Assembly: GCA_963832025.1 (NCBI GenBank)
Contig: CAWHSF010000003.1
Location: forward strand, 207,665-271,664
DNA length: 64,000 bases
Direction of reading: 5' to 3'
Origin: Candidatus Nomurabacteria bacterium
GTDB lineage: Bacteria; Patescibacteriota; Minisyncoccia; Phycocordibacterales; UBA9973
Shown here one piece after another: positions 2,517-63,571 of the stretch. Position 1 is the stretch's first letter. Every line of letters begins with the position of its first letter. Under the pieces are notes generated by a model. That model was not told the origin of the DNA. It made no database searches and worked only from the letters and a program-made list of their open reading frames with translations. The position numbers were made by a program, and so were the translations under genes.

Positions 2517-2525
2517 TGGTATAAT
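2517..2525 (+). promoter_or_regulatory. extended -10 box TGgTATAAT, 6 nt before ATG 2532 (leaderless-type)
   Basis: tatggtataat-taaatt-ATG read directly. Confidence 0.55.
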
Positions 2526-2531
2526 TAAATT

Positions 2532-3523
2532 ATGAAATTTAGGTTTCTATTACTGCTTTTAGTTACAATAATCATAACAACAGGTGTTATTTCACCGTTT
2601 AAAGTAAGTGCTTCTTCCCCCAGTGATGTTAGTATATCCACCGTTCCAGAAAACCCAGCTCCAAATCAAAATGTAACTATCACATTGAGCAGTTATGTAG
2701 ATGATTTGGATAGTGTTTTAATAACTTGGACTGTAAACGGAAAAAATTCTAGTTCGGGAATCGGCGATAAATCTTTTTCTTTAATCGCTCCAGCTTTGGG
2801 GCAAAAAACGACAGTCATAGCTACCATTTCTTTATCTGATGGAGATTTAAATGAAACGATACCGATAACCCCAGCAATAATGACCATGCTTTGGCAGGCA
2901 AATGATTCTTATGTGCCGCCTTTTTACGAGGGAAAAGCTTTGCCGTCACCGGACAGTGAAATAAAAGTTGTGGCTATGCCGGAAATAAAAAATGGTTCCA
3001 GTTTTGTCAATCCCACAAATATGACTTATGATTGGCAACTAGATGAAAACAATCGATGCGGACAATTCCGGTTATGGGAAAAATTCTTATATTTATGTAA
3101 GTGATTATTTGGATAATTCAAACAATGTTAGCGTGACAGCTTCTACTTTAGACCAACAAGACTTCAGTGGATGGAAGCTTAAATGTAGCAACCGTAAATC
3201 CAAAAATAGATTTTTATAAAGATGACCCAACTTTGGGAACTGTTTGGGAGAAGCAGTTTCAGATGGTATCAAGATTACGGGAAATGAAATTATTACAAGC
3301 TGCTCCATATTTCATATCACCAAAAGAGTTTAAGAATTCCTTTTTTGACATGGACCTGGTCTTTGAATGGAGCAACAGATTGCCGTGTCATCTTATAGTA
3401 GTAACATTATTGCCACTACAACTGCAAAACGGCATTCATGGAACATCTCAAATAGGCCTAGAGGTGAGCAATATTCACAGCTTGGTCAACACAGCCAGCA
3501 AGGAAATTAATGTAAATTTTTAA
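2532..3523 (+). pseudogene. secreted protein with signal peptide, interrupted by two +1 frame changes (2532-3104, ~3051-3219, 3167-3523)
   Basis: N-terminal signal peptide MKFRFLLLLLVTIIITTG. The sequence continues as IDADNSGYGKNSYIYVSDYLDNSNNVSVTASTLDQQDF in the +1 frame, then (V)DGSLNVATVNPKIDFYKDDP in the next +1 frame. Confidence 0.45.
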
Positions 3524-11286: not shown

Positions 11287-13827
11287 CTATTGTGAAACTT
11301 TAAATACAGAATCCGTTTCACTACTATTATATTGCGTATCGTAAGAAATTATTTTTAAAGTGTTGCTTGCCTGCAGGTTCTCTAAATTTTCTGGAATGAA
11401 AGAAAAAGCAAATGGTGGAGTAATGGTTTCTTGATAAACACCATTTATATAAATATCCATTTTTTGCAACGGGAATGTACCAGAACTTGATATTTGTAGA
11501 TTTATTTTTTGTCCTGGTTGATAAACAGTCGTAGTATCTGGGGAAACGACTGAGACCACAGGTTTGTTTTGGTCGGTATGAATGTTGTCCGCGGCTACTG
11601 GTTTGTCAGCAAGCGTTACTATCGGGTACTTACTTTTATTTTGTGCCCACCAATTTTGTACCGGTACATCCCAGTGTTCAAATTGTGGATCGCTTGCCGG
11701 GTTTACCGGTGGTGGCCCTAAAATATCATTTCTATCCACCCAATATAAAATTGAATGTACATTTGTTATCACTTTTTCTTCCAAAGTTTGACTTGGTGTA
11801 TCGGAAGTAGCTAAAAGTCCGGTAGTTTTATCTATGAAAAAATTATCATTGCCCTCCCAGAAGCCTCGCAAAGCAGGTTTTACAAGCATCGGATTTGTGG
11901 TTAAATCCGGTTTTTCAAATGTTTCTTTTGGGAGGGTTGCCAAAGCTTGTGTCATAAACTGATTCCAGATGGGTCCGGCAACTGCAACTCCGCCGTTTTT
12001 CATTGGAGTATCGTTATTATTTCCTGCCCAAACTCCTACAACTAAAGAAGGAGTGTAGCCAATTGTCCAAGCGTCTTTATCATTATTTGTCGTTCCTGTT
12101 TTAACTGCGACATCTTTACCGGGAATATATAAAGCCGAGTGTACTCCAAAAGTTGGTTCACGGGCTGTTTCATCGGAAAGAATATCCGAAATAGTTAAAG
12201 CGGTATTCTTGGGCAGAACTTGTTGCAGAGTTGGCTGATATTGCTCTAAAATTTTTCCGGTCAAATCTTGAACCTGCAAGATTCCAGTGTAAGGGTTCCT
12301 TAACCCATCATTTGCGAACACTCCGTAAGCTGAGGTCATATCCAAAAGAGAAACTTCTCCACCTCCGATAACCAAAGTGAGTCCATACTGCTCCGCATCA
12401 CCCAGGGTGCTAATACCCATGTTTTCCGCTGTTTGCAGAGAGTTTTGTTCTCCGGTTAGGTAATAAAGTTTTACTGCCGGAATATTGATTGATTGGGCAA
12501 GTGCGTTTCTCAAACTAATTGGGCCACGATATTTTCCATCAAAATCTTGTGGCATATAGCAATCACTTTGGCTGTGACCTGGGAGTGCTTTACCATAAGC
12601 ATCACAGGTCGTTTGGAATTCTGTGGGTAAGTCAAACAGCACGGTGTCCGGAGTAAAGCCCTCATTAAAGGCTGTAGCGTAAATAAAAGGCTTAAAGGAA
12701 GAGCCTGGTTGTCTAGTGGCCGTGGCAACGTTGAAATTACCGTCTATTGTTTTATCAAAATAATCTCTTGAACCTACCATCGCCAGCACTTGTCCGGTTT
12801 TTGGGTCTATTGCCACAAGAGCGGCGTTTGATGCATTCCAAGTTTTCTCGTTCTGCAAAGCGCCATTTTTTACAATTTGTTCCGCCTGCGCCTCCAAATT
12901 GGCATCCAAGGTCGTAATAACTTTTAATCCACCGTTTTCCACCAGATCCGTGCCATATTTTTGTTCCAAGTAATCTTGAATCCAAAAAACAAAGTGCGGA
13001 GCTATTATGCCCGAGGTTGCCTGTGGAACAAAAGTTACAACTTCATTTTTTGCTTGGTCGTATTGAGCTTGTGTAATCATTTTGAGATCCAACATTCTAG
13101 ACAAGACTAAATTTTTCCTTTCATCTAGTTTATCTTTATTTTTCCCATAAGGAGAAAGAATGCTGGGGGATTGTGGGATTGATGCTAAATATGCGGCTTG
13201 CGCCAAATCCAAATCCGATGCATCAATACTAAAATAATTTTTACTGGCTGCCTCAATACCATAAATATTTCCTCCATAAGGAATTGCATTCAAATATGCC
13301 TCCAAGATGTCGTCTTTTGACATTGAATGGTCTATCTTTATTGCTAAAACCCATTCCTTGATTTTTCTGATGTAACTTCTATCCGATGTAAGCAAAGTAT
13401 TTTTTACCAATTGTTGGGTTATGGTAGAACCACCACCTCCGACTCCAATATGAAAAACATCAGAAAATGCCGCACGCAAAGTAGAGCTAATCCTAACTCC
13501 TCCCTCTGTGTAGAAATTTGAATCCTCGATTGCAATCGTTGCATTTTTAATGTTTGGGCTCATTTGAGCTAGCGGAATGTCAGTTCTTTTTACGTCGTTG
13601 TGTATATCATAAAGCAAAATTTTACCTGTTCGGTCATAAATTTGTGTGGAATTGGCAACCTTTCTGTCCGCGAAAGAATGAAAATCCGGAATCTTCAAAG
13701 AAGACAACATTATTACCACTGCTCCGGAAAATAAAATAAAAAGGCTAATGACAAATAAGGCTAAGTTTTTCAGCAACCGCTTGTTTTTATATAAATTTTT
13801 AAGTTTTCTAAAGATTTTTTTCACCAT
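11287..13827 (-). CDS. bifunctional penicillin-binding protein 1A (glycosyltransferase + transpeptidase) with C-terminal extension
   Basis: GT51 motif EDSNFYTEGG; transpeptidase SSFKP (SxxK) and KTGTT; N-terminal TM. Confidence 0.9.
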   Translation of the reverse strand: MVKKIFRKLKNLYKNKRLLKNLALFVISLFILFSGAVVIMLSSLKIPDFHSFADRKVANSTQIYDRTGKILLYDIHNDVKRTDIPLAQMSPNIKNATIAIEDSNFYTEGGVRISSTLRAAFSDVFHIGVGGGGSTITQQLVKNTLLTSDRSYIRKIKEWVLAIKIDHSMSKDDILEAYLNAIPYGGNIYGIEAASKNYFSIDASDLDLAQAAYLASIPQSPSILSPYGKNKDKLDERKNLVLSRMLDLKMITQAQYDQAKNEVVTFVPQATSGIIAPHFVFWIQDYLEQKYGTDLVENGGLKVITTLDANLEAQAEQIVKNGALQNEKTWNASNAALVAIDPKTGQVLAMVGSRDYFDKTIDGNFNVATATRQPGSSFKPFIYATAFNEGFTPDTVLFDLPTEFQTTCDAYGKALPGHSQSDCYMPQDFDGKYRGPISLRNALAQSINIPAVKLYYLTGEQNSLQTAENMGISTLGDAEQYGLTLVIGGGEVSLLDMTSAYGVFANDGLRNPYTGILQVQDLTGKILEQYQPTLQQVLPKNTALTISDILSDETAREPTFGVHSALYIPGKDVAVKTGTTNNDKDAWTIGYTPSLVVGVWAGNNNDTPMKNGGVAVAGPIWNQFMTQALATLPKETFEKPDLTTNPMLVKPALRGFWEGNDNFFIDKTTGLLATSDTPSQTLEEKVITNVHSILYWVDRNDILGPPPVNPASDPQFEHWDVPVQNWWAQNKSKYPIVTLADKPVAADNIHTDQNKPVVSVVSPDTTTVYQPGQKINLQISSSGTFPLQKMDIYINGVYQETITPPFAFSFIPENLENLQASNTLKIISYDTQYNSSETDSVFKVSQ

Positions 13828-13846
13828 AGAATTGTAACAGCAAACA

Positions 13847-13855
13847 TGGTATTAT
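13847..13855 (+). promoter_or_regulatory. extended -10 box TGgTATTAT, 7 nt before tyrS ATG
   Basis: catggtattat-tcaaact-ATG. Confidence 0.5.
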
Positions 13856-13862
13856 TCAAACT

Positions 13863-15032
13863 ATGAAAGTGATAACGGACGCGAAAAGAATAGAGGAGGT
13901 TTTGACTAAAGGAGTTGAAAACGTCTTTGTAAAAGAAGAGCTTAAGAAGAAGCTCTCTTCCGGTAAAAAACTAAAAGTATATCTAGGCATTGATCCAACT
14001 GGACCCACTCTCCACATGGGGCACGCAATACCACTGAAAAAACTACAGCAATTTCAAGAGCTTGGACACCAAGTAATTCTTTTGATGGGAGACTTTACTG
14101 CGATGATTGGAGACCCTACCGACAAGTCTTCCACCAGAAAACAACTTTCTCACAAAGAAGTTTTAAATAATTTAAAAAGATATAAAAAACAAGCTTCGAT
14201 TTTTTTGAAGTTCACAGGAGACAATAAAGCTGAATTTAAATTCAACTCCAAGTGGTTATCAAAAATGAAGTTTGAAGATGTTTTAAACTTAGCCTCAAAA
14301 ATGACAGTTGAACAAATGTTGAAGCGCGATATGTTTGTGAAGAGAAGCGAAGAAGGTAAACCAATATTTATTCATGAATTTTTATATCCTTTAATGCAGG
14401 GTTATGACAGTGTGGCCATGAAAGTGGATGTGGAAGTCGGTGGAAACGATCAAATGTTCAACATGCTTGCCGGCCGAAATCTTTCCGCGCAAATTTTAAA
14501 GAAAGACAAAGCAGTTGTTACTATGCAACTTCTTGAAGATAACACCGGCAAAAAAATGGGCAAAACAGAAGGAAATATGGTTACCTTTGAAGACTCTGCG
14601 CAAGATATGTTTGGAAAAGTGATGAGCTGGAATGACTCTTTAATTAAAAAAGGTTTTGAACTTTGTACCAATGTCGATTCTTTACTCATAGACATGAATC
14701 AAAACCCCCGCGATTTGAAAATGAAGCTTGCTTTTGAAATCGTAAAAATTTATCACGGAGAAAAAAAATCCAAAGAAGCAGAAAATATTTTTGTTAATAC
14801 ATTTCAAAAAAAAGAAGTTCCGGAAGTCGTAGAAGAAATAGAGGGCGAAGGTTTATTAACACAAATTCTTTTACAAGCAAAAATTTTTAGTTCAAACTCT
14901 GAAATACGTCGTCTGTTTGAAGCAGGAGCCATTTCTGATATGACGGAAAATAAGAAACTTTCTGCTCCTGGCGTTGTTACAAAGGGGCACGTTTATAAAA
15001 TCGGTAAACACAGATTTATAAAAATAAAATAA
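13863..15032 (+). CDS. tyrS: tyrosyl-tRNA synthetase
   Basis: GIDPTGPTLHMGH (HIGH) and KMGKT (KMSKS) motifs; C-terminal S4-like domain. Confidence 0.9.
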   Translation: MKVITDAKRIEEVLTKGVENVFVKEELKKKLSSGKKLKVYLGIDPTGPTLHMGHAIPLKKLQQFQELGHQVILLMGDFTAMIGDPTDKSSTRKQLSHKEVLNNLKRYKKQASIFLKFTGDNKAEFKFNSKWLSKMKFEDVLNLASKMTVEQMLKRDMFVKRSEEGKPIFIHEFLYPLMQGYDSVAMKVDVEVGGNDQMFNMLAGRNLSAQILKKDKAVVTMQLLEDNTGKKMGKTEGNMVTFEDSAQDMFGKVMSWNDSLIKKGFELCTNVDSLLIDMNQNPRDLKMKLAFEIVKIYHGEKKSKEAENIFVNTFQKKEVPEVVEEIEGEGLLTQILLQAKIFSSNSEIRRLFEAGAISDMTENKKLSAPGVVTKGHVYKIGKHRFIKIK

Positions 15033-19454: not shown

Positions 19455-19463
19455 TGTTAATAT
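19455..19463 (+). promoter_or_regulatory. extended -10 box TGtTAATAT, 6 nt before tsaE ATG
   Basis: tatgttaatat-caaaag-ATG. Confidence 0.5.
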
Positions 19464-19469
19464 CAAAAG

Positions 19470-19937
19470 ATGACTAGCGGAATAAAAAAAATATCGAAAA
19501 GCGTAAAAGAAACAAGTAAAATAGCAAAAATATTTATTGAAGAAGTTCTGAAAAATAGCAAAACCGACCAAGGCGCTTTTGTGGTTGGCTTGGTTGGGAA
19601 TTTAGGGGCAGGCAAGACAGCTTTTGCGCAAGCTGTCGCCAAACACCTGGGAGTAAAAAATAAAGTTAGTAGTCCAACTTTTGTAATTATGAAAAAATAT
19701 CCCCTAAAAAAAAATCAGAAAAATAAAAAATATGACTTTTTATTTCACTTAGATGCTTATCGCCTAAAAAATGAGCAAGAATTATTGTATTTGGGGTGGC
19801 AAGAAATTTTAGACAACGAGAAACACCTTGTCTTTATTGAATGGCCGGAAAATGTATCCAAAGTTATGCCAAAAAATATCAAGTATATTCATATTTCCGA
19901 CCAAAAAGATGGGCAAAAAGTTTTCAAATTTAAATGA
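19470..19937 (+). CDS. tsaE: tRNA t6A37 biosynthesis ATPase TsaE
   Basis: P-loop GNLGAGKTAF; SPTF motif; HLDAYRL. Confidence 0.8.
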   Translation: MTSGIKKISKSVKETSKIAKIFIEEVLKNSKTDQGAFVVGLVGNLGAGKTAFAQAVAKHLGVKNKVSSPTFVIMKKYPLKKNQKNKKYDFLFHLDAYRLKNEQELLYLGWQEILDNEKHLVFIEWPENVSKVMPKNIKYIHISDQKDGQKVFKFK

Positions 19938-22442: not shown

Positions 22443-22451
22443 TGTTATAAT
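22443..22451 (+). promoter_or_regulatory. extended -10 box TGtTATAAT, 6 nt before ATG 22458
   Basis: tatgttataat-agatgg-ATG. Confidence 0.55.
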
Positions 22452-22457
22452 AGATGG

Positions 22458-22925
22458 ATGGAAAACAACCCCCCGGATATCTACAAGAATAAAGTCCATA
22501 AAATTTTAGCCCGTTCTTACTCTGTTTATCTAGTTTTTTTCTTGCTAGGCGTGTATTTAAATTTAATTTTTAACTTCAAAGTTTTTGCTAGTTCTATCGT
22601 TACACCGATTGGCCTTCTTTTCTTAATACTTGGAACTTTTTTAGCCATCTGGGCACAAAAAACGTCTAGAAATTTAGATACAAAAAATTTAACGAAAGAA
22701 GTTTTTTACAAGGGGCCGTATCGTTTTACCAGTACACCTACCAACTTCGGATTATTTTTTTTGATGTTGGGCTTTGGGATGATTGCGAACTCCTTTTTTA
22801 TCATGACTTGTTCTTGTATCGCCTTCGTGATTGCTAGGTTTGTTCTTCTGGTACAAGAAGAACAAGTTCTCGCGGAGAAATACGGTATCCCTTATATAGA
22901 ATATAAAAAAATAGTTAAGTTTTAA
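22458..22925 (+). CDS. membrane methyltransferase-like protein (ICMT/PEMT-like family)
   Basis: 155 aa, about 4 TM. C-terminal LVQEEQVLAEKYGIPYIEYKKIV resembles isoprenylcysteine carboxyl methyltransferase family tails. Confidence 0.5.
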   Translation: MENNPPDIYKNKVHKILARSYSVYLVFFLLGVYLNLIFNFKVFASSIVTPIGLLFLILGTFLAIWAQKTSRNLDTKNLTKEVFYKGPYRFTSTPTNFGLFFLMLGFGMIANSFFIMTCSCIAFVIARFVLLVQEEQVLAEKYGIPYIEYKKIVKF

Positions 22926-23581: not shown

Positions 23582-23590
23582 TGTTATTAT
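23582..23590 (+). promoter_or_regulatory. extended -10 box TGtTATTAT, 9 nt before tRNA-Lys 5' end
   Basis: gtgttattat-caaaatcat-GCGCCCG. Confidence 0.5.
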
Positions 23591-23599
23591 CAAAATCAT

Positions 23600-23672
23600 G
23601 CGCCCGTAGCTCAGCTGGTAGAGCAGATCCCTTTTAAGGATAAGGTCCTCGGTTCGATCCCGAGCGGGCGCA
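23600..23672 (+). tRNA. tRNA-Lys (anticodon UUU)
   Basis: Hand-folded cloverleaf: acceptor GCGCCCG/CGGGCGC; anticodon loop CTTTTAA; T-loop TTCGATC. Confidence 0.9.
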
Positions 23673-36909: not shown

Positions 36910-37059
36910 TGATTTTTTTGTTTAAGTTATTAAGTACAAACAGATATCCCTTAGAAATCGACTCTTTTCGAACCTGCTTTGTGCATGAAGTATATCATAA
37001 AATAGCCTGATTTGTCAAGGTACCTTTCTATTTTACCCTAAATAAGCTAGTCTGTATAA

Positions 37060-38590: not shown

Positions 38591-39206
38591 ACAATTCTTC
38601 TCCTTTTATTTCTCTCACTCCTCCGGGTTTTAAGGTTCCTAATTTTATATTAATAATTCTTTCGCGTTTCAAATCGGCGACTTCTTGAAACAAAGCAGAA
38701 CACATGCGGCGGATTTGGTGTTTCTTGCCTTCTGTTAAAATTACTCTGAAAGTATTTTCATTTACAATTTTTACTTTGCATTTTTTTGTCAGGTAGCCTT
38801 CAATATTTACGCCAGCTTCCATTTTATTTTTTAAACTCGAGCGAAGTTTATTGGAGGTGCGGACAATGTATTCTTTTTCGTGAAAGTATTTAGGACTCAA
38901 AAGTTGCTCAGTGATGCGTCCGTCATTCGTCAAGATGAGTAATCCATGAGAATTTTTATCTAACCTCCCAAGAGGGAAGAAGCCCTCCTTTGGAGAATCA
39001 GTTTCAACCCCGATTGGTTTATTGTATGCAAAATATTTATATTCTTTTGGTTTTACCCCTTTTATTTCTACCTTATCATTTTCGCCTACTTGGCTGCCGA
39101 GTTCTGCCAACTTGCCATTTATAAAAACCTTCTTTTCTTTTATAAGTTCATCCGCACCCCTTCTGGTGGAGATTTTTCTATCAGCTAAATATTTATTAAT
39201 CCGCAT
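38556..39206 (-). CDS. pseudouridine synthase, RsuA/RluB family
   Basis: N-terminal S4 domain (MRINKYLADRKISTRR); catalytic motif GRLDKNSHGLLILTNDG. The 3' end overlaps the ABC-F gene by 35 nt. Confidence 0.8.
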   Translation of the reverse strand: MRINKYLADRKISTRRGADELIKEKKVFINGKLAELGSQVGENDKVEIKGVKPKEYKYFAYNKPIGVETDSPKEGFFPLGRLDKNSHGLLILTNDGRITEQLLSPKYFHEKEYIVRTSNKLRSSLKNKMEAGVNIEGYLTKKCKVKIVNENTFRVILTEGKKHQIRRMCSALFQEVADLKRERIINIKLGTLKPGGVREIKGEELSTFLDQVLHQS

Positions 39207-39232
39207 TCACTCATCTTAACATAGAATTTTCT

Positions 39233-43865: not shown

Positions 43866-44282
43866 TTAAATTGATAATGTCGCACCGTTTATTGATTGAC
43901 TCCTACTAATTTGTTTCATTAAATATTTTAATGACAAGAAGCAAACAAAGAAAAGAGAAAGAGTAAAAATAATACTCATTGTTGGTAAAGATTCAGCCAG
44001 AGAAAAAGACAATTCTTTCCAGTAGGTCAACATTGATCCACTATCGGAAAAGATTAAAGAGAAATATTCATAAAAACCAGAATGTGCAAAATCACTTAAC
44101 AACATTTGGAAGGCCGGTATTAGTCCCACTGAAGACAGGAAAAGGATTAAGGACAGAGACCACAATTTTAATCTAATCATTCTTTTTTGGTGTGCATTTA
44201 TGATTTTCCATACGGAAAAAGACAACTCCGGGCTGGGTTCGTATACTGCCTTTTTAAATAATTTTATTAATTTGTCTTGCAT
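43866..44282 (-). CDS. putative anti-sigma factor (membrane protein)
   Basis: 138-aa ORF with 3 TM segments, immediately downstream of the ECF sigma gene. Assignment rests on position only. Confidence 0.35.
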   Translation of the reverse strand: MQDKLIKLFKKAVYEPSPELSFSVWKIINAHQKRMIRLKLWSLSLILFLSSVGLIPAFQMLLSDFAHSGFYEYFSLIFSDSGSMLTYWKELSFSLAESLPTMSIIFTLSLFFVCFLSLKYLMKQISRSQSINGATLSI

Positions 44283-44320
44283 ATGGATATTATACGTTAT
44301 TTAAGGTTATTTTGGTGCAT

Positions 44321-44944
44321 TTATTTATGGCTCACTTCAATGCCTCCTTGCGAAGGAGAGGCAGATATTATTTTTTTAAGTTCTAAAAGAGCTCTACGGT
44401 GTTGGCTTTTGACCGTGTTTAGCGGTTTGTCTAGAATTTTTCCTATTTCTTCAAAAGTCATTTCTTCTTGGTAATGAAGAATCAAAACTTCCTGATAATC
44501 TAAACGTAATTTTTCCAAAGTCTTATTCAAAAATTGACTGTCTTGTAATTTTTGCAAGGTCACGTCCGGCAACAGATCTTCTGCAGGAATATTTTCGGCA
44601 AAAGAATTTATATTTTCTTCGTCCTTGTTTTCCATGTCGGAAAACAGCAAACTTCTTTTTTTTCTCAAAAAATCGGTTACGGTATTTTTTGTAATAGTAA
44701 AAATCCAAGTTTTGAAACTTGCCTTTTTTGAATCAAAGTTACGAATATTTTTCCATATTTTTATAAAAACTTCTTGAACTATGTCTGGTGCATCGTTGCG
44801 ATTTGTTAGGCGTGCAGTAAAGTTATAAAGAGAAGTGGTATAACGATTTATGAGAATTTTTAACGCTTCTTGTTCTCTGTTTTTGTATAAAATAAGAATT
44901 TCTTCGTCACTTGATTTAGTTAGGTCACTATCATCATTTTCCAT
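44321..44944 (-). CDS. ECF-type sigma-70 family RNA polymerase sigma factor
   Basis: Region 2 DIVQEVFIKIWKN; region 4 HTH MTFEEIGKILDKPLNTVKSQHRRAL. Start MENDDSD chosen from the promoter spacing. Confidence 0.8.
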   Translation of the reverse strand: MENDDSDLTKSSDEEILILYKNREQEALKILINRYTTSLYNFTARLTNRNDAPDIVQEVFIKIWKNIRNFDSKKASFKTWIFTITKNTVTDFLRKKRSLLFSDMENKDEENINSFAENIPAEDLLPDVTLQKLQDSQFLNKTLEKLRLDYQEVLILHYQEEMTFEEIGKILDKPLNTVKSQHRRALLELKKIISASPSQGGIEVSHK

Positions 44945-44950
44945 GCCTTT

Positions 44951-44959
44951 AATATAGCA
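44951..44959 (-). promoter_or_regulatory. extended -10 box TGcTATATT, 6 nt before sigma-factor ATG 44944
   Basis: Minus strand: tgtgctatatt-aaaggc-ATG. Confidence 0.5.
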
Positions 44960-45018: not shown

Positions 45019-45034
45019 AATATGGAACTTTGGT

Positions 45035-49391: not shown

Positions 49392-49880
49392 TTAAAATCC
49401 AAGCATTTCCATTATTCTATCTGTCGGGTGTTCTCTCATTTCAACTTCTGCAATATTTTTTGAAGTCATAATGTAATGAATGTCTGTCGCCATCGTCTCA
49501 TCTATCGGGATGGTTATGATTGGCATAAAAGCTCTTTCTGAGTGTATGAAAAGAAGTGATTTTGTATTTATCTGTTCGGGTTGTTCTGTTTGTATCCAAA
49601 AAGACTTTATATTTTCATAAGGATAAATACGATTGCCGATTTTAAGTCCTTTATTGTTTAATTCATAAAAAATAGTTCCCGGCTTTTTTACCGCAAAAAA
49701 TCCGAGCAATATTCCAGAAAGAATCAATAATGCGGCAAAAAAATAATCACCAAAAATAATTGCAGCAATTGAACTGGTTATCACAATAATTCCGAGAGCC
49801 CAAAACCAATCTTTGCTTCTTTCTCGTTCTTCGTATTCGAGTGCGGACCAATTTAATTTTTCACTTAAACCCTCATCCAT
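49392..49880 (-). CDS. membrane protein with bacterial PH-like domain (hypothetical)
   Basis: 162 aa; two TM helices followed by KKPGTIFYELNNKGLKIGNRIYPYENIKSFWI. Confidence 0.4.
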   Translation of the reverse strand: MDEGLSEKLNWSALEYEERERSKDWFWALGIIVITSSIAAIIFGDYFFAALLILSGILLGFFAVKKPGTIFYELNNKGLKIGNRIYPYENIKSFWIQTEQPEQINTKSLLFIHSERAFMPIITIPIDETMATDIHYIMTSKNIAEVEMREHPTDRIMEMLGF

Positions 49881-49952
49881 GCTATAATCATACTATACTA
49901 ATAACCTTTTATCAAAAATAAATGCAAAAATTTTCCGTCGTTCTTTCCTTTT

Positions 49953-53557: not shown

Positions 53558-54292
53558 TTATCTTTTTAATATTTCGGCAACAATCGCCATGTGGTCGCTA
53601 ACTCCGTCTACCAGTTTAACGTTTGAAGTTTTGTATTCTGGGGTGGTAAAAAGACAATCAACCATATATTGCAATCCTTTAACCCTGTGTAATTTTTGGT
53701 CTAGGCTAGTTTTATATCCCAATGGGATATTGTCTTTATATTTTTTTTCAAGCATGTTAAAAGTTTCATTTCCACGAGGAGCGTTCATGTCTCCACAAAT
53801 AACAAACTCACCGAAGGAGTTTAATTTTTCCAAAAGATTTTTTGCTACTTCTATTTGAAAGGGGCTAGATTCTCCCTCTTTGGTAACCGGTAGGTGAGTA
53901 GTTATAATTTTGTATATTACACCATCAACATTTTTTACGTTCGTCCAGACTAAAGCATAATTTTTTATAAATTTTTCATCAGAGATATATTCATCAAACG
54001 ATTTTAAAAGATTCTCTTCTTTCCCATAATAAAAAATTGAGTCTGAATCAATAATGTTTTTTGTAAAAATCGCAATGCCCTGTCTTTTACCAATCAGCTC
54101 TAAATAATTCTTACTTTTAATATAACTGAAGCAACAAAAATTTCCACTTAAATTCAATTCTTTCTTAAAAAACTCAAAATCTTCTTCCAGAAGTTCTTGA
54201 AAACAAACCACATCAGGTTTTTCTTTTTTTAGAAAACTTAAAACAGTATCATAATGTAAATTATTTTCTATATTAATTGATATCAACTTCAT
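53558..54292 (-). CDS. endonuclease/exonuclease/phosphatase (EEP) family protein
   Basis: 244 aa; ...VVCFQE..., ICGDMNAPRGNE, SDHMAIVAEI motifs. Confidence 0.7.
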   Translation of the reverse strand: MKLISINIENNLHYDTVLSFLKKEKPDVVCFQELLEEDFEFFKKELNLSGNFCCFSYIKSKNYLELIGKRQGIAIFTKNIIDSDSIFYYGKEENLLKSFDEYISDEKFIKNYALVWTNVKNVDGVIYKIITTHLPVTKEGESSPFQIEVAKNLLEKLNSFGEFVICGDMNAPRGNETFNMLEKKYKDNIPLGYKTSLDQKLHRVKGLQYMVDCLFTTPEYKTSNVKLVDGVSDHMAIVAEILKR

Positions 54293-54298
54293 TGTCTT

Positions 54299-54307
54299 AT
54301 TATAGCA
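54299..54307 (-). promoter_or_regulatory. extended -10 box TGcTATAAT, 6 nt before ATG 54292
   Basis: Minus strand: tctgctataat-aagaca-ATG. Confidence 0.55.
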
Positions 54308-55366: not shown

Positions 55367-55742
55367 CCTTTGAAAGGTTTAAAATTTTTCCGGTATCCAC
55401 ATAAACTTGATACCAGGCAAAAGTGGAATTTTTGCCGGATAAGTTTTGATAAACTTGCACCGTCCAATAAACGCCAAAGGTGTCTTTGTCTGTCGTCGCG
55501 CTTACGCCTATGAGCGGATGCCCGTGTTTCTTTTCGGTTTGGGTGAAGAAGTTTTCTACTTCCGGCAAATCGCTGACTACCTTGATTGCTTGATCCTGAG
55601 TGATTTCGTTCTGGCTTTTATCTAAGACACTGGGAGTGTAAATAAAACCTAGCTCTTGCTCCACTAAATAATAAGCTAGCGCCCCAGCTATGATGGTGAT
55701 AATGAGAAGCGCATAAATAAAATTTACTTTTTTATAAATCAT
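55359..55742 (-). CDS. membrane-anchored small protein (hypothetical, PepSY-like shape)
   Basis: 127 aa; N-terminal TM. Overlaps the downstream PLD gene by 8 nt. Confidence 0.4.
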   Translation of the reverse strand: MIYKKVNFIYALLIITIIAGALAYYLVEQELGFIYTPSVLDKSQNEITQDQAIKVVSDLPEVENFFTQTEKKHGHPLIGVSATTDKDTFGVYWTVQVYQNLSGKNSTFAWYQVYVDTGKILNLSKDD

Positions 55743-55749
55743 TATCTAA

Positions 55750-55758
55750 AGTATAGCA
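55750..55758 (-). promoter_or_regulatory. extended -10 box TGcTATACT, 7 nt before ATG 55742
   Basis: Minus strand: tttgctatact-ttagata-ATG. Confidence 0.5.
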
Positions 55759-55905: not shown

Positions 55906-56040
55906 CTAGTCGGCCGGCTCGGTGTTGTCAGCGCAGAAGTTGGTGTTGAGGCCGGTGCTACCGCGGGTGTCGGTGAGGCCTTCGCATACGACATTGGCAT
56001 TCGGGTTGGCGCAGGAGGCGCCGAGACAGCGTTTGTTCAT
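55906..56040 (-). CDS. 44-aa Cys-containing peptide encoded in a high-GC islet (foreign-looking)
   Basis: MNKRCLGASCANPNANVVCEGLTDTRGSTGLNTNFCADNTEPAD. 35 of 43 codons after ATG end in G/C. AAGGAG lies 7 nt upstream of ATG. GC stem-loop GGGGGTCCG-cgg-CGGACCCCC lies downstream. Confidence 0.5.
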   Translation of the reverse strand: MNKRCLGASCANPNANVVCEGLTDTRGSTGLNTNFCADNTEPAD

Positions 56041-56153
56041 GGTGTTGCTCCTTGGGGAGAGGCTACCTTCTCGACTCCATAAAACTGGAAGGAACTCTCA
56101 GATAGAGAGTAATATATTTCTCTCCAACATACAAATAAGTTATCCCCACCTAT

Positions 56154-56315
56154 TTACTTAAACGCGAAAGCGAGGAGCACGATAGTGAGAGCGTTCAGAA
56201 CAACCAACGCAATCACTAATGCTGTTTTTGAATGCATCGCGTTGGGGTTGTTTAAAATATATACCGTGTAGATTATCGCAACAATCGCCGCGCCAATAAA
56301 ATTTCCTTTTATCAT
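56154..56315 (-). CDS. hypothetical 53-aa two-TM micro-protein
   Basis: Hand translation: MIKGNFIGAAIVAIIYTVYILNNPNAMHSKTALVIALVVLNALTIVLLAFAFK. Below the ORF-track cutoff. Confidence 0.35.
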   Translation of the reverse strand: MIKGNFIGAAIVAIIYTVYILNNPNAMHSKTALVIALVVLNALTIVLLAFAFK

Positions 56316-56395
56316 AGTTTTTAAATTATTAAATTAATAAAGCATTCGGCCTTTAATGGTTATATTATATCATCTTTCGAAATGAATTTTTCCTG

Positions 56396-56505: not shown

Positions 56506-56994
56506 TTATTGTGCTTTTTTTTCAATCTTTTTTCGTAACCAGCTCTTTTCTAAAAAATGTTCTTCGTAATGACAATTTGGACAAATAAGTTCCAGGTTAT
56601 TTAATTCGTTGCGATTTCTGTTTCTGTCTTTGTGGTGGACTTGCAGAATTTCATATTTGTTATAATTGCATTTTTCGCATTTCAATCCTCTCGCTTTCAG
56701 AAGTTTTAGTTTTAGGGCTTGTTGAGACTTAACTTTGTCTCTCGGACTGCCTAAGTGGTATTTAATGCCTGTTCTTTGTATGTTAGCACAAGCCCTTCCA
56801 CAAGTTTTTTTATTTAATCCAGATAAAATTAATTTTCCGCAAACCGAGCAGGGGATTTCTTTTCTGCAAGATATTCCACGACAAACCAAGCTACAAAAGA
56901 CCTGTCCACTTTTTATTTGGAATGGTCTTCTATAGATTTCCTTACAGCAAACATTACATTTTGTATTCGGTTTTCTTTTGTACGGCTCGCTCAC
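56506..56994 (-). CDS. HNH endonuclease with N-terminal repeated Cys4 zinc-ribbon modules
   Basis: HHKDRNRNRNELNNLELICPNCH; upstream CxxC...CxxxC repeats; GTG start. Confidence 0.7.
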   Translation of the reverse strand: MSEPYKRKPNTKCNVCCKEIYRRPFQIKSGQVFCSLVCRGISCRKEIPCSVCGKLILSGLNKKTCGRACANIQRTGIKYHLGSPRDKVKSQQALKLKLLKARGLKCEKCNYNKYEILQVHHKDRNRNRNELNNLELICPNCHYEEHFLEKSWLRKKIEKKAQ

Positions 56995-57000
56995 TCATCC

Positions 57001-57009
57001 AGTATACCA
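57001..57009 (-). promoter_or_regulatory. extended -10 box TGgTATACT, 6 nt before GTG 56994
   Basis: Minus strand: agtggtatact-ggatga-GTG. Confidence 0.4.
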
Positions 57010-57013
57010 CTTT

Positions 57014-57259
57014 TTATTTAAATGACGAAAGTGCTTTGCGAAAATCTCTTTTTACGTCCGTCCAGCTTTTCTTTGCAATCTTGAAAATGTAGAAAATTTC
57101 TAAAATTCCCACAGTATTCAAGATGAGCAAAACGATAAACCATCCCTTTTGATTGTGCTTGGCACAGAGCCAAAGCGAATAGGCTTTCCATGGAATGGTC
57201 CAAAGAGCCAAGATTAAAATAATGACATTGAAAGCACCCGAACTATATAAATTATACAT
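57014..57259 (-). CDS. small two/three-TM membrane protein (hypothetical)
   Basis: 81 aa; WTIPWKAYSLWLCAKHNQKGWFIVLLILNTVGILEIFYIF. Confidence 0.5.
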   Translation of the reverse strand: MYNLYSSGAFNVIILILALWTIPWKAYSLWLCAKHNQKGWFIVLLILNTVGILEIFYIFKIAKKSWTDVKRDFRKALSSFK

Positions 57260-57294
57260 GCCGAAATAATAACAGAAAAAAGCATTTTATGCTA

Positions 57295-57362: not shown

Positions 57363-57379
57363 TGCTAGTATTCTTTTAT

Positions 57380-57823
57380 ATGAGATTTTTGGGAATTGAT
57401 TATGGGACAAAGAGAATAGGACTCGCAGTTTCTGATGAAAATGGACAAATTGCTTTTCCGAAAGAAATACTCGTCAATGATTTGAATACTTTTAAAACGC
57501 TGGGTGATATAATCAAAACAGAAAAGGTCAAAGAGATTGTTGTTGGCGAGTCGGTGGATTTTTCCGGAAAATTAAACGCGCTGTCTGGCAGAATTGAAGT
57601 TTTTATTTTAGAATTAAAAGAGAAGTTTGGGTTGCCGGTTTACAAACAAAAAGAATTTTTGACTTCCGTGGAGGCCCGCCGTTCTAAAAATAGTAAAAAA
57701 GATTTTAATTCACCTCAATCACACAGCAAAGTAAAACAAATAAAGTCAGGGAGAGTAGATGCTTCGGCTTCCGCATTAATATTACAAAGATATTTAGATC
57801 GCAGAAATAAAACAAATGAGTGA
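57380..57823 (+). CDS. ruvX: YqgF/RuvX-family putative pre-16S rRNA nuclease / resolvase-like protein
   Basis: MRFLGIDYGTKRIGLAVSD N-terminus. The ORF is open from 57329, but that part covers the hairpin. Confidence 0.8.
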   Translation: MRFLGIDYGTKRIGLAVSDENGQIAFPKEILVNDLNTFKTLGDIIKTEKVKEIVVGESVDFSGKLNALSGRIEVFILELKEKFGLPVYKQKEFLTSVEARRSKNSKKDFNSPQSHSKVKQIKSGRVDASASALILQRYLDRRNKTNE

Positions 57824-58187: not shown

Positions 58188-58212
58188 AATAGCAACCGGA
58201 ACCAAAATATCG

Positions 58213-58218
58213 TATACT
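58213..58218 (+). promoter_or_regulatory. -10 box TATACT, 6 nt before pilM ATG 58225
   Basis: tcgtatact-attaac-ATG. Confidence 0.4.
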
Positions 58219-58224
58219 ATTAAC

Positions 58225-59331
58225 ATGTTTATGGAGTCACCTAATAAGAATTTTTCAAAATTTTTTCTTAAATTATTCCCTATTCCCAATTTTTTAGAAG
58301 CTCGTTCTTTTGGTTTGGATATATCGGATGAATCATTGAAATTTGTTGAGCTGCTCTCGACGAGGCATGGCATGAAGGTGGGGCGTTGGGGAGAAAAAAT
58401 TATTCCGCCCGGAGTGATTGAGTCTGGAAAAATCACAGACCCGAGACGAATGGAGGAGATTCTCTCCAGGTTGCGAAAAGAAGAAGGCGTAAAGTCTGTT
58501 CGTGTTTCTTTACCAGAAGAACAAGTTTACATCTTTCAACTTCGCCTGGAAAAAGCCGGACTCAAGAATATAAAAGAGGCGATAGAGCTTGTGCTGGAAG
58601 AACACGTTCCCATTCAAGCAGAAGATGCGATTTTTGACTACGCTTTAGTCAAAGAAGATGCGCAAAGTTTGGAGGTGCAAGTCGTGACAATTCCAAAAAA
58701 TATTATAGACAATTATCTGCTGATTTTTGAACACTCCCAAATACAAGTACAAGCTTTTGAATTGGAGGCGCAAGCCATCTCGCGCGCTGTTATCAAAAAT
58801 AAAGACATGGATACTTATATGATTGTTGATTTCGGCAAGAAACGAACTGGTATTTTCATTGTATCTAGTGGTATTGTCATGTTTACTTTTACTTTGGATG
58901 TGGGTGGTATCGCGCTTACCAATGTCATCCAAAAAAGTTTCAACGTAAATTTTGAAGAAGCGGAAAAAATGAAAGAAAAATATGGTTTAGAGCGTAGTTC
59001 GGAGAATAAAGAAATTTTTGCCGTGCTTTTAAACAATGTTTCCATTTTGCGCGATGAAATTGTGAAGCATTTTTTATATTGGAATACCCACAAAGACGAA
59101 GAAGGTAAAAATAATCCGCCGATAAAAAAAATAATTCTTTGTGGCGGAGATTCAAATTTGATAGGACTAGCAGATTATATTTCAGTAAGCATGAAGACTG
59201 CCGTAGAAATGGCAAATGTTTGGGTTAACATTATAAATACAGAAAGTTTTACCCCAGAGATGCCTTTTAGACAAGTTTTAGCTTTTGCCACGGCGTTTGG
59301 TCTGGTGCTCGGCAATTTCATTGATAATTAA
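58225..59331 (+). CDS. pilM: type IV pilus assembly protein PilM (actin-like ATPase fold)
   Basis: About 368 aa; FGLDISDESLKFVEL start; followed by pilN/pilO-like genes. Confidence 0.75.
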   Translation: MFMESPNKNFSKFFLKLFPIPNFLEARSFGLDISDESLKFVELLSTRHGMKVGRWGEKIIPPGVIESGKITDPRRMEEILSRLRKEEGVKSVRVSLPEEQVYIFQLRLEKAGLKNIKEAIELVLEEHVPIQAEDAIFDYALVKEDAQSLEVQVVTIPKNIIDNYLLIFEHSQIQVQAFELEAQAISRAVIKNKDMDTYMIVDFGKKRTGIFIVSSGIVMFTFTLDVGGIALTNVIQKSFNVNFEEAEKMKEKYGLERSSENKEIFAVLLNNVSILRDEIVKHFLYWNTHKDEEGKNNPPIKKIILCGGDSNLIGLADYISVSMKTAVEMANVWVNIINTESFTPEMPFRQVLAFATAFGLVLGNFIDN

Positions 59332-60851: not shown

Positions 60852-60869
60852 TAGAGCCTTAGAGAAATG

Positions 60870-60941
60870 CCCTCGTAGTTCAATGGATAGAACAGAGCTC
60901 TTCTAAGGCTTCGATGTAGGTTCGATTCCTACCGAGGGCAC
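60870..60941 (+). tRNA. tRNA-Arg (anticodon UCU)
   Basis: Acceptor GCCCTCG/CGAGGGC; anticodon loop CTTCTAA; T-arm GTAGG-TTCGATT-CCTAC. Confidence 0.9.
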
Positions 60942-61259
60942 AAAAATAAGCGGAGCATATTTTTGTGCCCGAGAGCGAGCAAACTGCTTTGCTCGCGGGT
61001 AGGAAGCGAAAAGCTTTTCATTAATAGCGAGAAATTTATTTCGAGCTATTTGAAAAGGTATACTGTTCCCGTAGGGAAAGATATCCTACCGAGGGCACAA
61101 AAATAAGCGGAGCATATTTTTGTGCCCGAGAGCGAGCAAACTGCTTTGCTCGCGGGTAGGAAGCGAAAAGCTTTTCATTAATAGCGAGAAATTTATTTCG
61201 AGCTATTTGAAAAGGTATACTGTTCCCGTAGGGAAAGATATCCTACCGAGGGCACAAAT
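60929..61259 (+). repeat. 2 x 157-bp direct tandem repeat, each unit starting with the last 13 nt of tRNA-Arg(UCU)
   Basis: CCTACCGAGGGCACAAA occurs at 60929, 61086 and 61243. The intervening 157-bp units read identical. Confidence 0.9.
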
Positions 61260-61278: not shown

Positions 61279-61287
61279 TGATACAAT
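61279..61287 (+). promoter_or_regulatory. extended -10 box TGaTACAAT, 6 nt before ATG 61294
   Basis: ttgtgatacaat-tgttct-ATG. Confidence 0.5.
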
Positions 61288-61293
61288 TGTTCT

Positions 61294-62061
61294 ATGGACG
61301 AAAATACGAATACGGAACCCATAGAAAATATCAACTCTGCTACCTTTAAATATATTCGTACTAGTTATTTACCATATGTAATTGTTTACATAGGTGTTTT
61401 TCTTGCCTTAATGATTATTTTTCACAACCCAGTTATTATTTACGTAATGATTATTCTGGGGTTCTTTGGGTACTCTTTTATTTTTAAAAAAATTAAAACT
61501 GAGTTCACAGAAGAGTTTGGTAAATCTATTGGTTTTAGTTACACAAAATCGACAGGAATAGAAACAGTTTCGGGGAAGTTATTTAAAACAGGTCACAGCC
61601 AATCTCTTTACGATGTTTTGACTGGTGTTTACCAAAATATCCCCATGCGTATTTTCACCCTATGCTTTACCGAAGGATATGGTAAAAATTCTCATACTTA
61701 CTCTTATACGGTTTTTGAATCCACTCTCAATAAGGTTGTGCCAGATATTTTATTATATTCAAAAAAACACTCAAGCGCCGTGCTTGATTTTTTTAATGGT
61801 GATGAGACAGTGGAGTTAGAAGGTGATTTTAATAAATATTTTAAATTACGAGTCCCAAAAGGATATGAGCAAGAGGCTTATCAAATATTCGCGCCCGATG
61901 TCATGGCTGATTTGATTGATAAAGCGCAAGAGGCCAGTTTTGAATTTACTGGCAACAAGCTTTATATATATGCTACGACAATCATCACAACCAAGGAACA
62001 AATGCAATCAATGTTTTCTCTTTCTGAATATCTTATTGCTTTATTTGATAAAAATATCTAA
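61294..62061 (+). CDS. hypothetical membrane protein (two N-terminal TM helices)
   Basis: 255-aa ORF. Possibly DUF3137-like; weak. Confidence 0.4.
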   Translation: MDENTNTEPIENINSATFKYIRTSYLPYVIVYIGVFLALMIIFHNPVIIYVMIILGFFGYSFIFKKIKTEFTEEFGKSIGFSYTKSTGIETVSGKLFKTGHSQSLYDVLTGVYQNIPMRIFTLCFTEGYGKNSHTYSYTVFESTLNKVVPDILLYSKKHSSAVLDFFNGDETVELEGDFNKYFKLRVPKGYEQEAYQIFAPDVMADLIDKAQEASFEFTGNKLYIYATTIITTKEQMQSMFSLSEYLIALFDKNI

Positions 62062-62093: not shown

Positions 62094-62102
62094 TGCTATA
62101 AT
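62094..62102 (+). promoter_or_regulatory. extended -10 box TGcTATAAT, 6 nt before thyA ATG 62109
   Basis: attgctataat-ctatct-ATG. Confidence 0.55.
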
Positions 62103-62108
62103 CTATCT

Positions 62109-63050
62109 ATGCAAGGCAAACACGTAGACGAATCTTATTTAGATTTATTGGAGCACATTATCAAGAATGGTGCGGTGAAAACTGACCGCACGGGAACGGG
62201 TACGAAGAGTTTATTGGGCTATCAAATGCGCTTTAATCTAAGCGACGGTTTTCCTCTTCTGACTACAAAAAAAGTTCCAATCAAATCAATCATCCACGAA
62301 TTGTTATGGTTCATGCGTGGTGACACCAACTTAAAATATTTGGCTGATAATAATGTGCACATTTGGGACGAGTGGCCTTACAAAGCTTATTTAATCAGAA
62401 ACAAAATGAATGTTCCAAAAACAGGCTCGGAAGAATGGAATTCGGGCATCAAGGAATTTATAGAAAAAATAAAAGCAGATGAAAGTTTTGCCAAAGATTA
62501 CGGAAACCTCGGTCCGATTTACGGATATCAGTGGAGAAGTTGGCCGACGCCAAACGGTGGACACATAGACCAGCTGGCGAAAGTCATAGAAGATATTAAA
62601 AACACTCCGGATTCTCGACGATTGATAGTTTCAGCCTGGAATGTAGCGGACATTGATGAGATGGCGAAAGCCGGACTTCCTCCATGTCATTGTTTTTTTC
62701 AATTCTATGTCGTGGATGGAAAATTGTCTTGTCAGCTCTATCAGCGCTCCTGTGATACTTTTCTCGGAGTTCCGTTTAATATTGCTTCTTATGCTTTGTT
62801 CACAATGATTATCGCACAGATTTGCGGATTACAGCCCGGAGAATTTGTTTGGACCGGCGGAGATGTTCATCTCTACTCAAATCATTTAGAGCAAGCGAAT
62901 TTACAACTTTCTCGTCGCGGTGATATTCGTCCGATGCCAAAAATGAAAATAAATCCAAACAAAAATAAAATTGCAGATTTTACAATCGATGATTTTGAAT
63001 TAATTGATTATAATCCTCATGAAGGAATAAAAGCCCCTATCGCAGTTTAA
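62109..63050 (+). CDS. thyA: thymidylate synthase (ThyA)
   Basis: [18 protein letters not shown] (catalytic Cys), GDVHLY motifs. The ORF is open from 62073. Confidence 0.9.
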
Positions 63051-63055: not shown

Positions 63056-63571
63056 ATGATTTCACTAATTGCAGCCATTGGTAGAAATAATGAACTTGGG
63101 AAGGGGAATACTTTGCTTTGGAAACTACCAGCCGACATGGAACATTTTAAAAAAATAACTTCTTTACATACCGTTTTGATGGGCAGAAAAACTTTTGAGT
63201 CCCTCGGGCGTAGTCCTACGGGCGAGCCAGTTGGACGTCCATTGCCAAATAGGAGAAATATAATCATTACTCGAGATGTAAATTACAAAAAAGAAGGAGT
63301 TGAAATTGCTCATTCATTGAGTGAGGCTTTAGACATAATCGGAAACAACGATGAAGAAATTTTTGTTATCGGCGGAGCAGAAATTTACAAGCAAACCATG
63401 CCGATTGCCGACAAGCTTTACATTACCCATATTGATGCGGAAGATAGTTCTGCCGACAGTTTTTTCCCGGAAATTATTCCGATTGTTTGGAATGAAGTAT
63501 CTCACGAGGAACACGAAAGAGACGAGAAAAATCCCTTAAACTACACTTTTTCTGTTTACGAGAAAATTTAA
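63056..63571 (+). CDS. folA: dihydrofolate reductase
   Basis: MISLIAAIGRNNELG; MGRKTFES; VIGGAEIY. Contains a 9-codon insertion in the GRPLP motif. Confidence 0.85.
   Translation: MISLIAAIGRNNELGKGNTLLWKLPADMEHFKKITSLHTVLMGRKTFESLGRSPTGEPVGRPLPNRRNIIITRDVNYKKEGVEIAHSLSEALDIIGNNDEEIFVIGGAEIYKQTMPIADKLYITHIDAEDSSADSFFPEIIPIVWNEVSHEEHERDEKNPLNYTFSVYEKI
63209..63238. other. 27-bp GC-rich in-frame insertion with flanking GR/GR codon duplication inside folA
   Basis: ESLGR-SPTGEPVGR-PLPNRR; gggcgt...ggacgt flank the insert; CGTAG-tc-CTACG mini-hairpin. Confidence 0.5.

Follow-up and report, generated by a model that had tools for sequence, protein, structure and literature searches.

Extended −10 promoters at a fixed distance from start codons point to leaderless mRNAs in a Nomurabacteria-like bacterium

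In a 64,000-nucleotide stretch of contig CAWHSF010000003.1 (the window), recorded under Candidatus Nomurabacteria bacterium, many genes, thyA among them, are preceded by an extended −10 promoter box that ends six nucleotides before the start codon. A preliminary description had listed 13 genes with such a box, separated from the start codon by six to eight nucleotides (N6 to N8), and had proposed that their mRNAs begin at or within 1 to 2 nucleotides of the AUG. Spacing, promoter anatomy and conservation support this proposal. Based on start sites predicted from these features, most of the genes concerned are very probably transcribed from the A of their ATG, give or take 1 to 2 nucleotides.

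Promoter boxes at a fixed distance from the start codon

The exact pattern TGNTANNNT-N6-ATG matches the window 11 times, compared with 2.50±1.55 times in dinucleotide shuffles (maximum 6; none of 100 shuffles reaches 11), and all 11 matches coincide with real gene starts. A chance origin of the pattern is excluded by the shuffles. Distances were also recorded between each TGNTANNNT and each ATG at the head of an open reading frame (ORF) of at least 80 codons, with no assumption about which ATG is a gene start. The resulting histogram has a single sharp peak, with 11 cases at N6 and 0 to 2 at each other spacing from 0 to 30; no ATG of a short ORF stands at N6 in it. Strong boxes, defined as TGn followed by at least five of six hexamer matches, number 39 in the window. 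Twelve of them sit 6 to 7 nucleotides ahead of a gene start (13 if the gene for a penicillin-binding protein, PBP, is counted), and about 7 more are attributable to tRNAs or to genes with a leader. The leaderless layout accounts for about 12 of the approximately 20 strong promoters of the window that are assignable to a gene. GC content is 33 to 40% in the window and 37% in the genome.

Disappearance of the spacing peak in wider statistics had been set beforehand as a refutation test, and the peak persists in two sets of related sequences. The first set, collected via pilM, comprises 34 related genomes (506 kb), and the second, independent set comprises 80 metagenome loci collected via TyrS (864 kb, 50 to 82% identity). 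Counts in the first set are 108 at N6, 28 at N7 and at most 18 elsewhere; the offsets in frame with N6 show no peak (N3, 2; N9, 18). In the second set, they are 81 at N6, 70 at N7 and 0 to 29 elsewhere. The PilM relatives, at 62 to 82% identity, come from metagenome-assembled genomes labelled Candidatus Nomurabacteria or Paceibacterota. Judged from these sequences, the host is probably a Nomurabacteria-like member of the Parcubacteria in the candidate phyla radiation (CPR, Patescibacteria), and we take it to be an ultra-small, groundwater-type bacterium.

Among individual genes, the box is retained at N6 or N7 in 26 of 30 ruvX orthologues (18 at N6, 8 at N7, 4 without a box), 27 of 29 of pilM, 16 of 17 of the DUF5652 gene and 20 of 21 of a gene for a hypothetical protein of 162 amino acids (hyp162). 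It is found at N6 in all five orthologues each of rpsT and ruvA, and in three of four of an S4/pseudouridine synthase gene. The HNH endonuclease gene has TGG TATACT at N6 before GTG in three of four orthologues, two of which are identical to the window in promoter and spacer. A gene for a hypothetical protein of 138 amino acids (hyp138) has two orthologues, one with the box at N5 and one without it. For tyrS, the 57 relatives include 23 with N6, 8 with N7 and 5 with N8, and 15 of the most distant ones lack the box and are apparently leadered, which indicates that the leaderless trait turns over in evolution.

The signature belongs to promoter-proximal genes and is missing from operon-internal ones of the same loci, with no box in 30 of 34 pilN and 26 of 28 pilO genes, and it is also found past short same-strand gaps. 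It occurs in 1 of 44 overlapping genes, becomes more frequent with the intergenic gap and reaches 45% in divergent genes (26% with TG). The upstream neighbour of pilM varies among relatives, being divergent or on the same strand at gaps of 7 to 351 nucleotides, and the promoter register stays.

A logo of 212 starts with TANNNT at N6 or N7 shows T (0.62) and G (0.57) at positions −15 and −14, a purine at −16 and a T-A-t-a-a-T hexamer with its information concentrated on positions 1, 2 and 6; position 3 is T in 55%. A weak TTgaCA-like signal lies about 18 nucleotides upstream, and T occupies position −1 in 57%. All features of an extended −10 promoter are present, that is, TG or TRTG one base upstream of TAtaaT, with a −35 element that is weak or dispensable. 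The motif is a sigma-70 TRTG-extended −10 promoter with a weak −35 element, and not a ribosome-binding site. A generic scan of the window for both sigma-70 hexamers (−35 and −10) was uninformative, with 64 sites against 53.6±7.2 in shuffles. The −35 element thus adds little signal.

The same promoter type serves RNA genes and leadered genes, and its distance is set by the transcript and not by the ORF. Among 131 tRNAs (the window and loci L002-L035), 57 carry the TGnTAnnnT motif within 80 nucleotides. Its distance to the mature tRNA 5′ end peaks at 8 to 9 nucleotides (2 cases at 7, 11 at 8, 11 at 9 and 3 at 10), which implies precursor leaders for RNase P of only about 1 to 3 nucleotides. A search against Rfam found five tRNAs in the window, and neither rRNA nor any other RNA. 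The gene csp, encoding a cold-shock protein of 65 amino acids (Pfam CSD aligned over residues 1 to 64), has a perfect TTGACA, a leader of about 73 nucleotides and an intrinsic terminator; it shows how a leadered unit looks in this genome. Longer distances, 60 to 139 nucleotides, are also seen at ruvB, at a gene for a protein of 1310 amino acids and at the gene at 49953.

Sites in the window

The coordinates and spacings given in the preliminary description are correct at all 13 sites. Its motif TGnTAnnnT holds for 12; pilM, at 58225, has TCG-TATACT, without TG. Pfam bears out the gene names (tyrS, tsaE, PEMT, rpsT, sigma-70 family, Exo_endo_phos, HNH, RuvX/YqgF, PilM and ThyA), and the profile alignments start at residues 1 to 10 of the proposed proteins. 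At least five additional sites exist, namely ruvA 32266(-), an rluA-like gene 39206(-), DUF5652 57259(-), hyp162 49880(-) and hyp138 44282(-); the first three of these belong to the 11 exact matches. All 13 genes had been described as first in their units. This can be demonstrated for seven, which are divergent or lie past a hairpin or a large gap; for the other six, it is the promoter that speaks for it. These six, at 2532, 22458, 54292, 56994, 58225 and 62109, have a same-strand gene 19 to 53 nucleotides upstream, without a terminator between. Sites are listed below from the thyA end of the window, followed by two contrasting promoters.

62094..62111, + strand, thyA promoter and start: TGCTATAAT-ctatct-ATG (N6); thyA 62109-63050, then folA 63056-63571
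61279..61296, + strand, hypothetical 255-amino-acid gene 61294-62061: TGATACAAT-N6-ATG; a public gene call has the same start
58210..58227, + strand, pilM 58225-59331: TCG-TATACT-N6-ATG, a plain −10 without TG; promoter directly past the stop of the upstream tRNA_bind gene
57363..57382, + strand, ruvX/yqgF 57380-57823: TGCTAGTAT-N8-ATG; outlier in spacing, predicted leader 0-2 nucleotides
57257..57274, − strand, DUF5652 gene 57014-57259: TGTTATTAT-N6-ATG; divergent from ruvX
56992..57009, − strand, HNH endonuclease gene 56506-56994: TGGTATACT-N6-GTG
55740..55758, − strand, hypothetical 127-amino-acid gene 55359-55742: TGCTATACT-N7-ATG
54290..54307, − strand, Exo_endo_phos gene 53558-54292: TGCTATAAT-N6-ATG
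49878..49895, − strand, hyp162 49392-49880: TAG-TATGAT-N6-ATG
44942..44959, − strand, sigma-70-family gene 44321-44944: TGCTATATT-N6-ATG; a 20-bp hairpin lies ahead, 44978-45025
44280..44297, − strand, hyp138 43866-44282: ACG-TATAAT-N6-ATG; probable site, without TG
39204..39221, − strand, S4/pseudouridine synthase (rluA-like) gene 38556-39206: TGTTAAGAT-N6-ATG; S4 domain, residues 1-46 on profile positions 1-48
32326..32343, + strand, rpsT 32341-32592: TGATATATT-N6-ATG
32264..32281, − strand, ruvA 31700-32266: TGATATTAT-N6-ATG; RuvA_N, residues 1-62 on profile positions 1-61; back to back with the rpsT promoter
22443..22460, + strand, PEMT-family gene 22458-22925: TGTTATAAT-N6-ATG
19455..19472, + strand, tsaE 19470-19937: TGTTAATAT-N6-ATG
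13847..13865, + strand, tyrS 13863-15032: TGGTATTAT-N7-ATG; divergent from the PBP gene
13822..13839, − strand, class A PBP gene: TGTTACAAT, then N3-ATG (13827) or N6-GTG (13824); start ambiguous
2517..2534, + strand, hypothetical 190-amino-acid gene 2532-3104: TGGTATAAT-N6-ATG
36989..37018, − strand, contrast, leadered csp unit (csp 36712-36909): TTGACA-18-TGATATACT, about 73 nucleotides upstream of csp; A-rich pre-ATG stretch without a Shine-Dalgarno sequence
23582..23600, + strand, contrast, tRNA-Lys at 23600: TGTTATTAT 9 nucleotides ahead of the tRNA

The start of thyA agrees with the public gene call on the identical contig, Pfam Thymidylat_synt aligns from residue 9 (8.5e-119), and one orthologue has TGT TATAAT ctattc ATG. 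Divergent pairs fit two promoters into 35 to 120 nucleotides (tyrS/PBP, 35; pilB/tsaE, 72; ruvA/rpsT, 74; DUF5652/ruvX, 120), which leaves little room for leaders. Two candidates were rejected. The gene ruvB at 17438 was discarded as leaderless, since its N8 box is weak and a perfect TGCTATAAT 60 nucleotides upstream takes precedence, and TGGTACAAT at 36904(-) was discarded as a promoter, since it lies inside the csp coding sequence. The perfect 20-bp hairpin at 44978-45025 stands between the end of the 1310-amino-acid gene, whose product resembles a surface protein, and the sigma promoter; it probably acts as a terminator and shields the leaderless sigma gene.

Transcription start, Shine-Dalgarno absence and rival readings

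At N6, the A of the ATG is the seventh base past the −10 hexamer. Across 49 bacteria with mapped transcription start sites, these sites centre 7 bp past the −10 element, and in 93% of library variants a Y(-1)R(+1)Y(+2) element holds the start at this position (PMC12641261). The base at −1 is a pyrimidine at 91 of 119 N6 sites, and +1 and +2 are A and T by definition. The 7-bp rule together with the YRY element leads us to place the start at the A of the ATG. Start codons at N6 are ATG in 119 cases, GTG in 9, and TTG or CTG in none; a bias towards ATG and an exclusion of TTG are what one would predict for a codon that has to be read at the very 5′ end.

These observations on motif, spacing, anatomy, use by RNA genes, conservation, start codons and Shine-Dalgarno (SD) absence suggest a route in which the start position and the mode of translation are predicted. 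Sigma-70-type extended −10 promoters with the consensus T-R-T-G-n-T-A-t-a-a-T and a weak −35 would place the start-codon A where bacterial RNA polymerase normally initiates, and (T/C)-A-T at the ATG would provide the preferred pyrimidine-purine-pyrimidine start element. The mRNA would then begin with 5′-AUG, with 0 to 2 extra bases at N7 and N8 sites such as tyrS and ruvX, and the ribosome with initiator tRNA would recognise the 5′-terminal AUG without SD pairing. Roughly a third of the genes of the lineage may be leaderless in this way. Ahead of the ATG, the remaining genes show only a stretch rich in A and poor in G, or they are tightly packed or overlapping with the upstream gene.

SD pairing was scored between positions −20 to −3 and CACCUCCU, with a cut-off of ΔG ≤ −4.5 kcal/mol. 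In the window and the pilM loci, 6 to 14% of genes reach the cut-off, with a mean ΔG of 0 to −1.4 kcal/mol, and in the TyrS loci (678 genes) 6% do so, with a mean of −0.5 kcal/mol. A Clostridium control locus, run through the same scan and pipeline, gave 13 of 16 genes (about 80%) and a mean of about −7 kcal/mol. Duplex energies are near zero at N6-type sites. The preliminary description had seen no SD-like purine run at its 13 sites, and none is indeed canonical; two sites reach −5.6 kcal/mol, only via G-U-rich stretches upstream of the −10 box. Its contrast between the listed genes and others was understated, as the SD is missing in the whole lineage and not just ahead of these genes. Where a gene lacks the −10 box at its start, the only features ahead of it are A-rich, G-depleted sequence between −9 and −2 and a T at −1, and all k-mers enriched there consist of A and T only. 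Genes whose starts are fixed by Pfam are SD-free too, namely folA, dnaN, csp and fpg (with its obligatory MPELPEV N terminus). SD pairing appears unused throughout this Nomurabacteria/Paceibacteria-like lineage. Seen from the mRNA side, the 16S anti-SD of this organism would be lost or unused; conserved 16S and 23S segments were absent from the window and the 116 fetched loci.

The contrast ORF described earlier, at 55906-56040 with a textbook AAGGAG, is present on the minus strand (56040->55906) as AAGGAG-N7-ATG. It encodes 44 amino acids with four Cys (MNKRCLGASCANPNANVVCEGLTDTRGSTGLNTNFCADNTEPAD), carries the sole textbook SD seen here and lies in an island of about 200 nucleotides (55850-56060, − strand) with 62 to 65% GC, within a genome of 37%. 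The ORF matches no Pfam family and has no counterpart in 34 related loci. The island may stem from a recent acquisition or from chimeric assembly.

Several points weigh against leaderless transcription as set out here. The transcription start sites are predictions from sequence. We know of no study of the RNA polymerase of this lineage, and the distance from −10 to start is assumed from other bacteria. TANNNT without TG occurs at any two fixed offsets in about 9 to 15% of AT-rich upstream regions, and sites of this kind without orthologue support (dnaA, yidC, pilB and hyp138) are uncertain. Gene starts were set by a simple first-ATG rule, and the related loci are partly orthologous, such that their counts are not independent events. 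At the six sites that closely follow a same-strand gene, leadered read-through transcripts probably also exist.

It is conceivable that the promoters are real but internal or secondary, or that transcription starts 1 to 3 nucleotides off the A. Protein would then come mostly from leadered polycistronic or very-short-leader mRNAs, with leaderless translation as a minor route. This would suit the six sites just named, where no terminator-like hairpin intervenes, the existence of N7, N8 and N9 variants (tyrS, ruvX, pilB) and the very short leaders in use at tRNA promoters. Moreover, where genes have no such promoter, their translation evidently manages without SD, so that ribosomes could also initiate internally on read-through RNA. 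We nonetheless consider this account unlikely, as the peak is one base wide at N6 and any short leader would bring no selection for an exact register. The lack of TTG and the strong preference for ATG are expected only with a 5′-terminal AUG, and seven sites are divergent or lie past a hairpin or large gap, with no upstream transcript.

Less probable still is that TAnnnT at −12 to −7 acts as a non-SD ribosome-binding motif in leadered mRNAs, for example as an AU-rich S1 site or as a partner of an altered 16S tail (group B/X of the scheme taken up below). An SD-free lineage needs some other signal, the motif is AU-rich and at the position of a ribosome-binding site, and the 16S 3′ end was not in the sequences searched. 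Against this, the conserved T1, A2 and T6, the TG two bases upstream and the −35-like signal amount to sigma-70 recognition and not to contiguous pairing. A general ribosome-binding motif would occur ahead of internal (pilN, pilO) and overlapping genes, from which TAnnnT at N6 or N7 is missing, and an identical motif stands ahead of tRNA genes and about 73 nucleotides before csp; genes without the motif show A-richness only. An artefact of composition or gene calling can also be imagined, since AT-rich DNA yields TAnnnT. Relaxed TANNNT is common in upstream regions (about 4 to 7% per offset), and the N6 hexamer is in frame with the ATG, so that TAA or TAG at −12 could mimic the hexamer while also bounding the ORF. 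This last explanation is effectively refuted by the shuffles, which never reach the observed count, by the absence of peaks at the in-frame offsets N3 and N9, by conservation and by the second set of relatives. T prevails at the third hexamer position, where the triplet thus reads TAT and is no stop, and neither TG at −15/−14 nor conservation among orthologues is explained by composition.

Returning to leaderless transcription, we lean towards a broader view for this CPR clade (Nomurabacteria/Paceibacteria-like, to a TyrS identity of about 50%). It may have abandoned SD entirely, with about one-third of its genes, including most promoter-proximal ones, leaderless with 5′-AUG in an exact register, tRNA leaders of 1 to 3 nucleotides, and the other genes dependent on leaders rich in A, on tight coupling or on a rare short 'UA(A/C)YGGG-AUG' leader. 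If true, the clade would be a bacterial counterpart of leaderless-dominated archaea and a natural system in which to study how a reduced ribosome initiates without SD, and the loss of the anti-SD in Parcubacteria would be tied to a concrete replacement mechanism.

Known systems and further observations

The leaderless mechanism as such is well established in Actinobacteria, Deinococcus, Mycoplasma and archaea; what is added here is the taxonomic scope and the SD-free, low-GC CPR context. Group C of GeneMarkS-2 is defined by a Pribnow-type TANNNT box 6 to 8 nucleotides before the start of promoter-proximal genes, with 25 to 50% of transcripts predicted leaderless (PMC6028130). This prediction was confirmed by differential RNA sequencing in Actinobacteria and Deinococcus-Thermus, for example, M. 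tuberculosis and D. deserti (PMC6028130; 10.1101/2022.07.25.500264). The present genome likewise has its −10 boxes 6 to 8 nucleotides upstream of promoter-proximal start codons. By contrast, nearly all group C members with genetic code 11 are high in GC (10.1101/2022.07.25.500264), and their other genes use SD (PMC6028130), whereas this genome has 37% GC and no SD in any gene class. Its promoters also have a strong TG/TRTG extension and a spacing peak that is essentially one base wide. Mycoplasma, the low-GC members of group C, share reduced, AT-rich genomes, with 30 to 60% of transcripts predicted leaderless (10.1101/2022.07.25.500264). They use genetic code 4 and have SD-type models of the ribosome-binding site for other genes, whereas here, in a CPR genome, TGA is a stop and there is no SD signal.

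Bacteroidetes (group B) resemble this lineage in lacking SD and in the A-rich, G-poor stretch before the starts that is seen here at leadered and internal genes (PMC6028130). They differ in that one and the same non-SD motif stands ahead of every gene and leaderless mRNAs do not characterise the group, whereas here about 30% of genes have a promoter in the leader's place. In leaderless-dominated archaea (haloarchaea and Sulfolobus; group D), most units are transcribed from the start codon, with little or no role for SD, as proposed here, but the TATA box lies about 22 to 26 nucleotides upstream and polymerase and initiation factors are of another type (PMC6028130).

Within the same broad taxon, the CCUCCU anti-SD was detected in only 48% of Parcubacteria, and the lineages without it overlap the group lacking uL1 (PMC9297842). 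That survey left mRNA recognition unaccounted for and does not name Nomurabacteria in its main text (PMC9297842). SD-free mRNAs are what loss of the anti-SD predicts. The survey analysed rRNA and ribosomal proteins; the word 'leaderless' occurs 0 times in its text, and promoter-start spacing is not treated (Tsurumaki et al. 2022, PMC9297842). Locus L001, at 5392-7077, about 4.5 to 6 kb past the window end, has, in this order, nusG, rplK and the gene of a Vut_1 transporter, while rplA is missing from the place it usually takes after rplK; the order in this one locus would fit the uL1-lacking subgroup, to which the host may belong. We found no description of leaderless mRNAs in CPR bacteria in the open-access literature, and a prior mention elsewhere is possible; a preprint of the TM7x study (PubMed 35975994) makes no mention of leaderless mRNAs, untranslated regions (UTRs), ribosome binding, Shine-Dalgarno sequences, promoters or start sites.

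The CPR holds a large share of bacterial diversity, has reduced ribosomes and is nearly uncultured, and its translation initiation is essentially unstudied. A testable candidate answer to the gap in mRNA recognition in Parcubacteria without anti-SD comes from the window together with some 1.4 Mb from relatives, namely promoters in register with the ATG at many genes and A-rich leaders at the others. For annotation, gene finders that assume SD would misplace starts in such genomes, and a −10 box at N6 is a precise marker of the start codon. Expression constructs for CPR bacteria should probably be leaderless.

A second, conserved short-leader motif was seen ahead of about 1 to 2% of genes. It consists of a TATTAT-like −10 about 20 to 24 nucleotides before the ATG, a run of A/T and, abutting the ATG, TTTT(n)TA(A/C)(C/T)GGG, with a predicted 5′ UTR of about 13 to 16 nucleotides that ends in GGG. 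In the window, it occurs at 10990-11023, 28805-28836, 31625-31660(-) and 3585-3609, and in relatives at nusG of L001 (6532-7077 -), L005 (9592, 11770), L024 (7786), L034 (15336) and tyrS of L054, L084 and L096. The genes concerned are unrelated (hyp85, a uvrC-like gene, fpg, nusG and tyrS of some relatives), and the start of fpg is certain from MPELPEV. The motif may serve as an alternative signal for initiation or as a leader with a regulatory role.

A strong TGATATAAT box lies just downstream of tRNA-Ser (56160-56372, − strand). About 45 nucleotides past it is an ORF of about 50 amino acids that resembles a membrane protein (ATG near 56318) and falls below the length cut-offs of the gene list. 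To judge from the adjoining yidC (−), dnaA (8286-9626) and dnaN (9842-10939) genes at 6687-10939, the replication origin probably lies within the window. A perfect tandem duplication of 157 nucleotides (60927-61240, two copies, 100% identical) starts inside the 3′ end of tRNA-Arg(tct) (60869-60941) and may be a scar left by integration or an artefact of the assembly.

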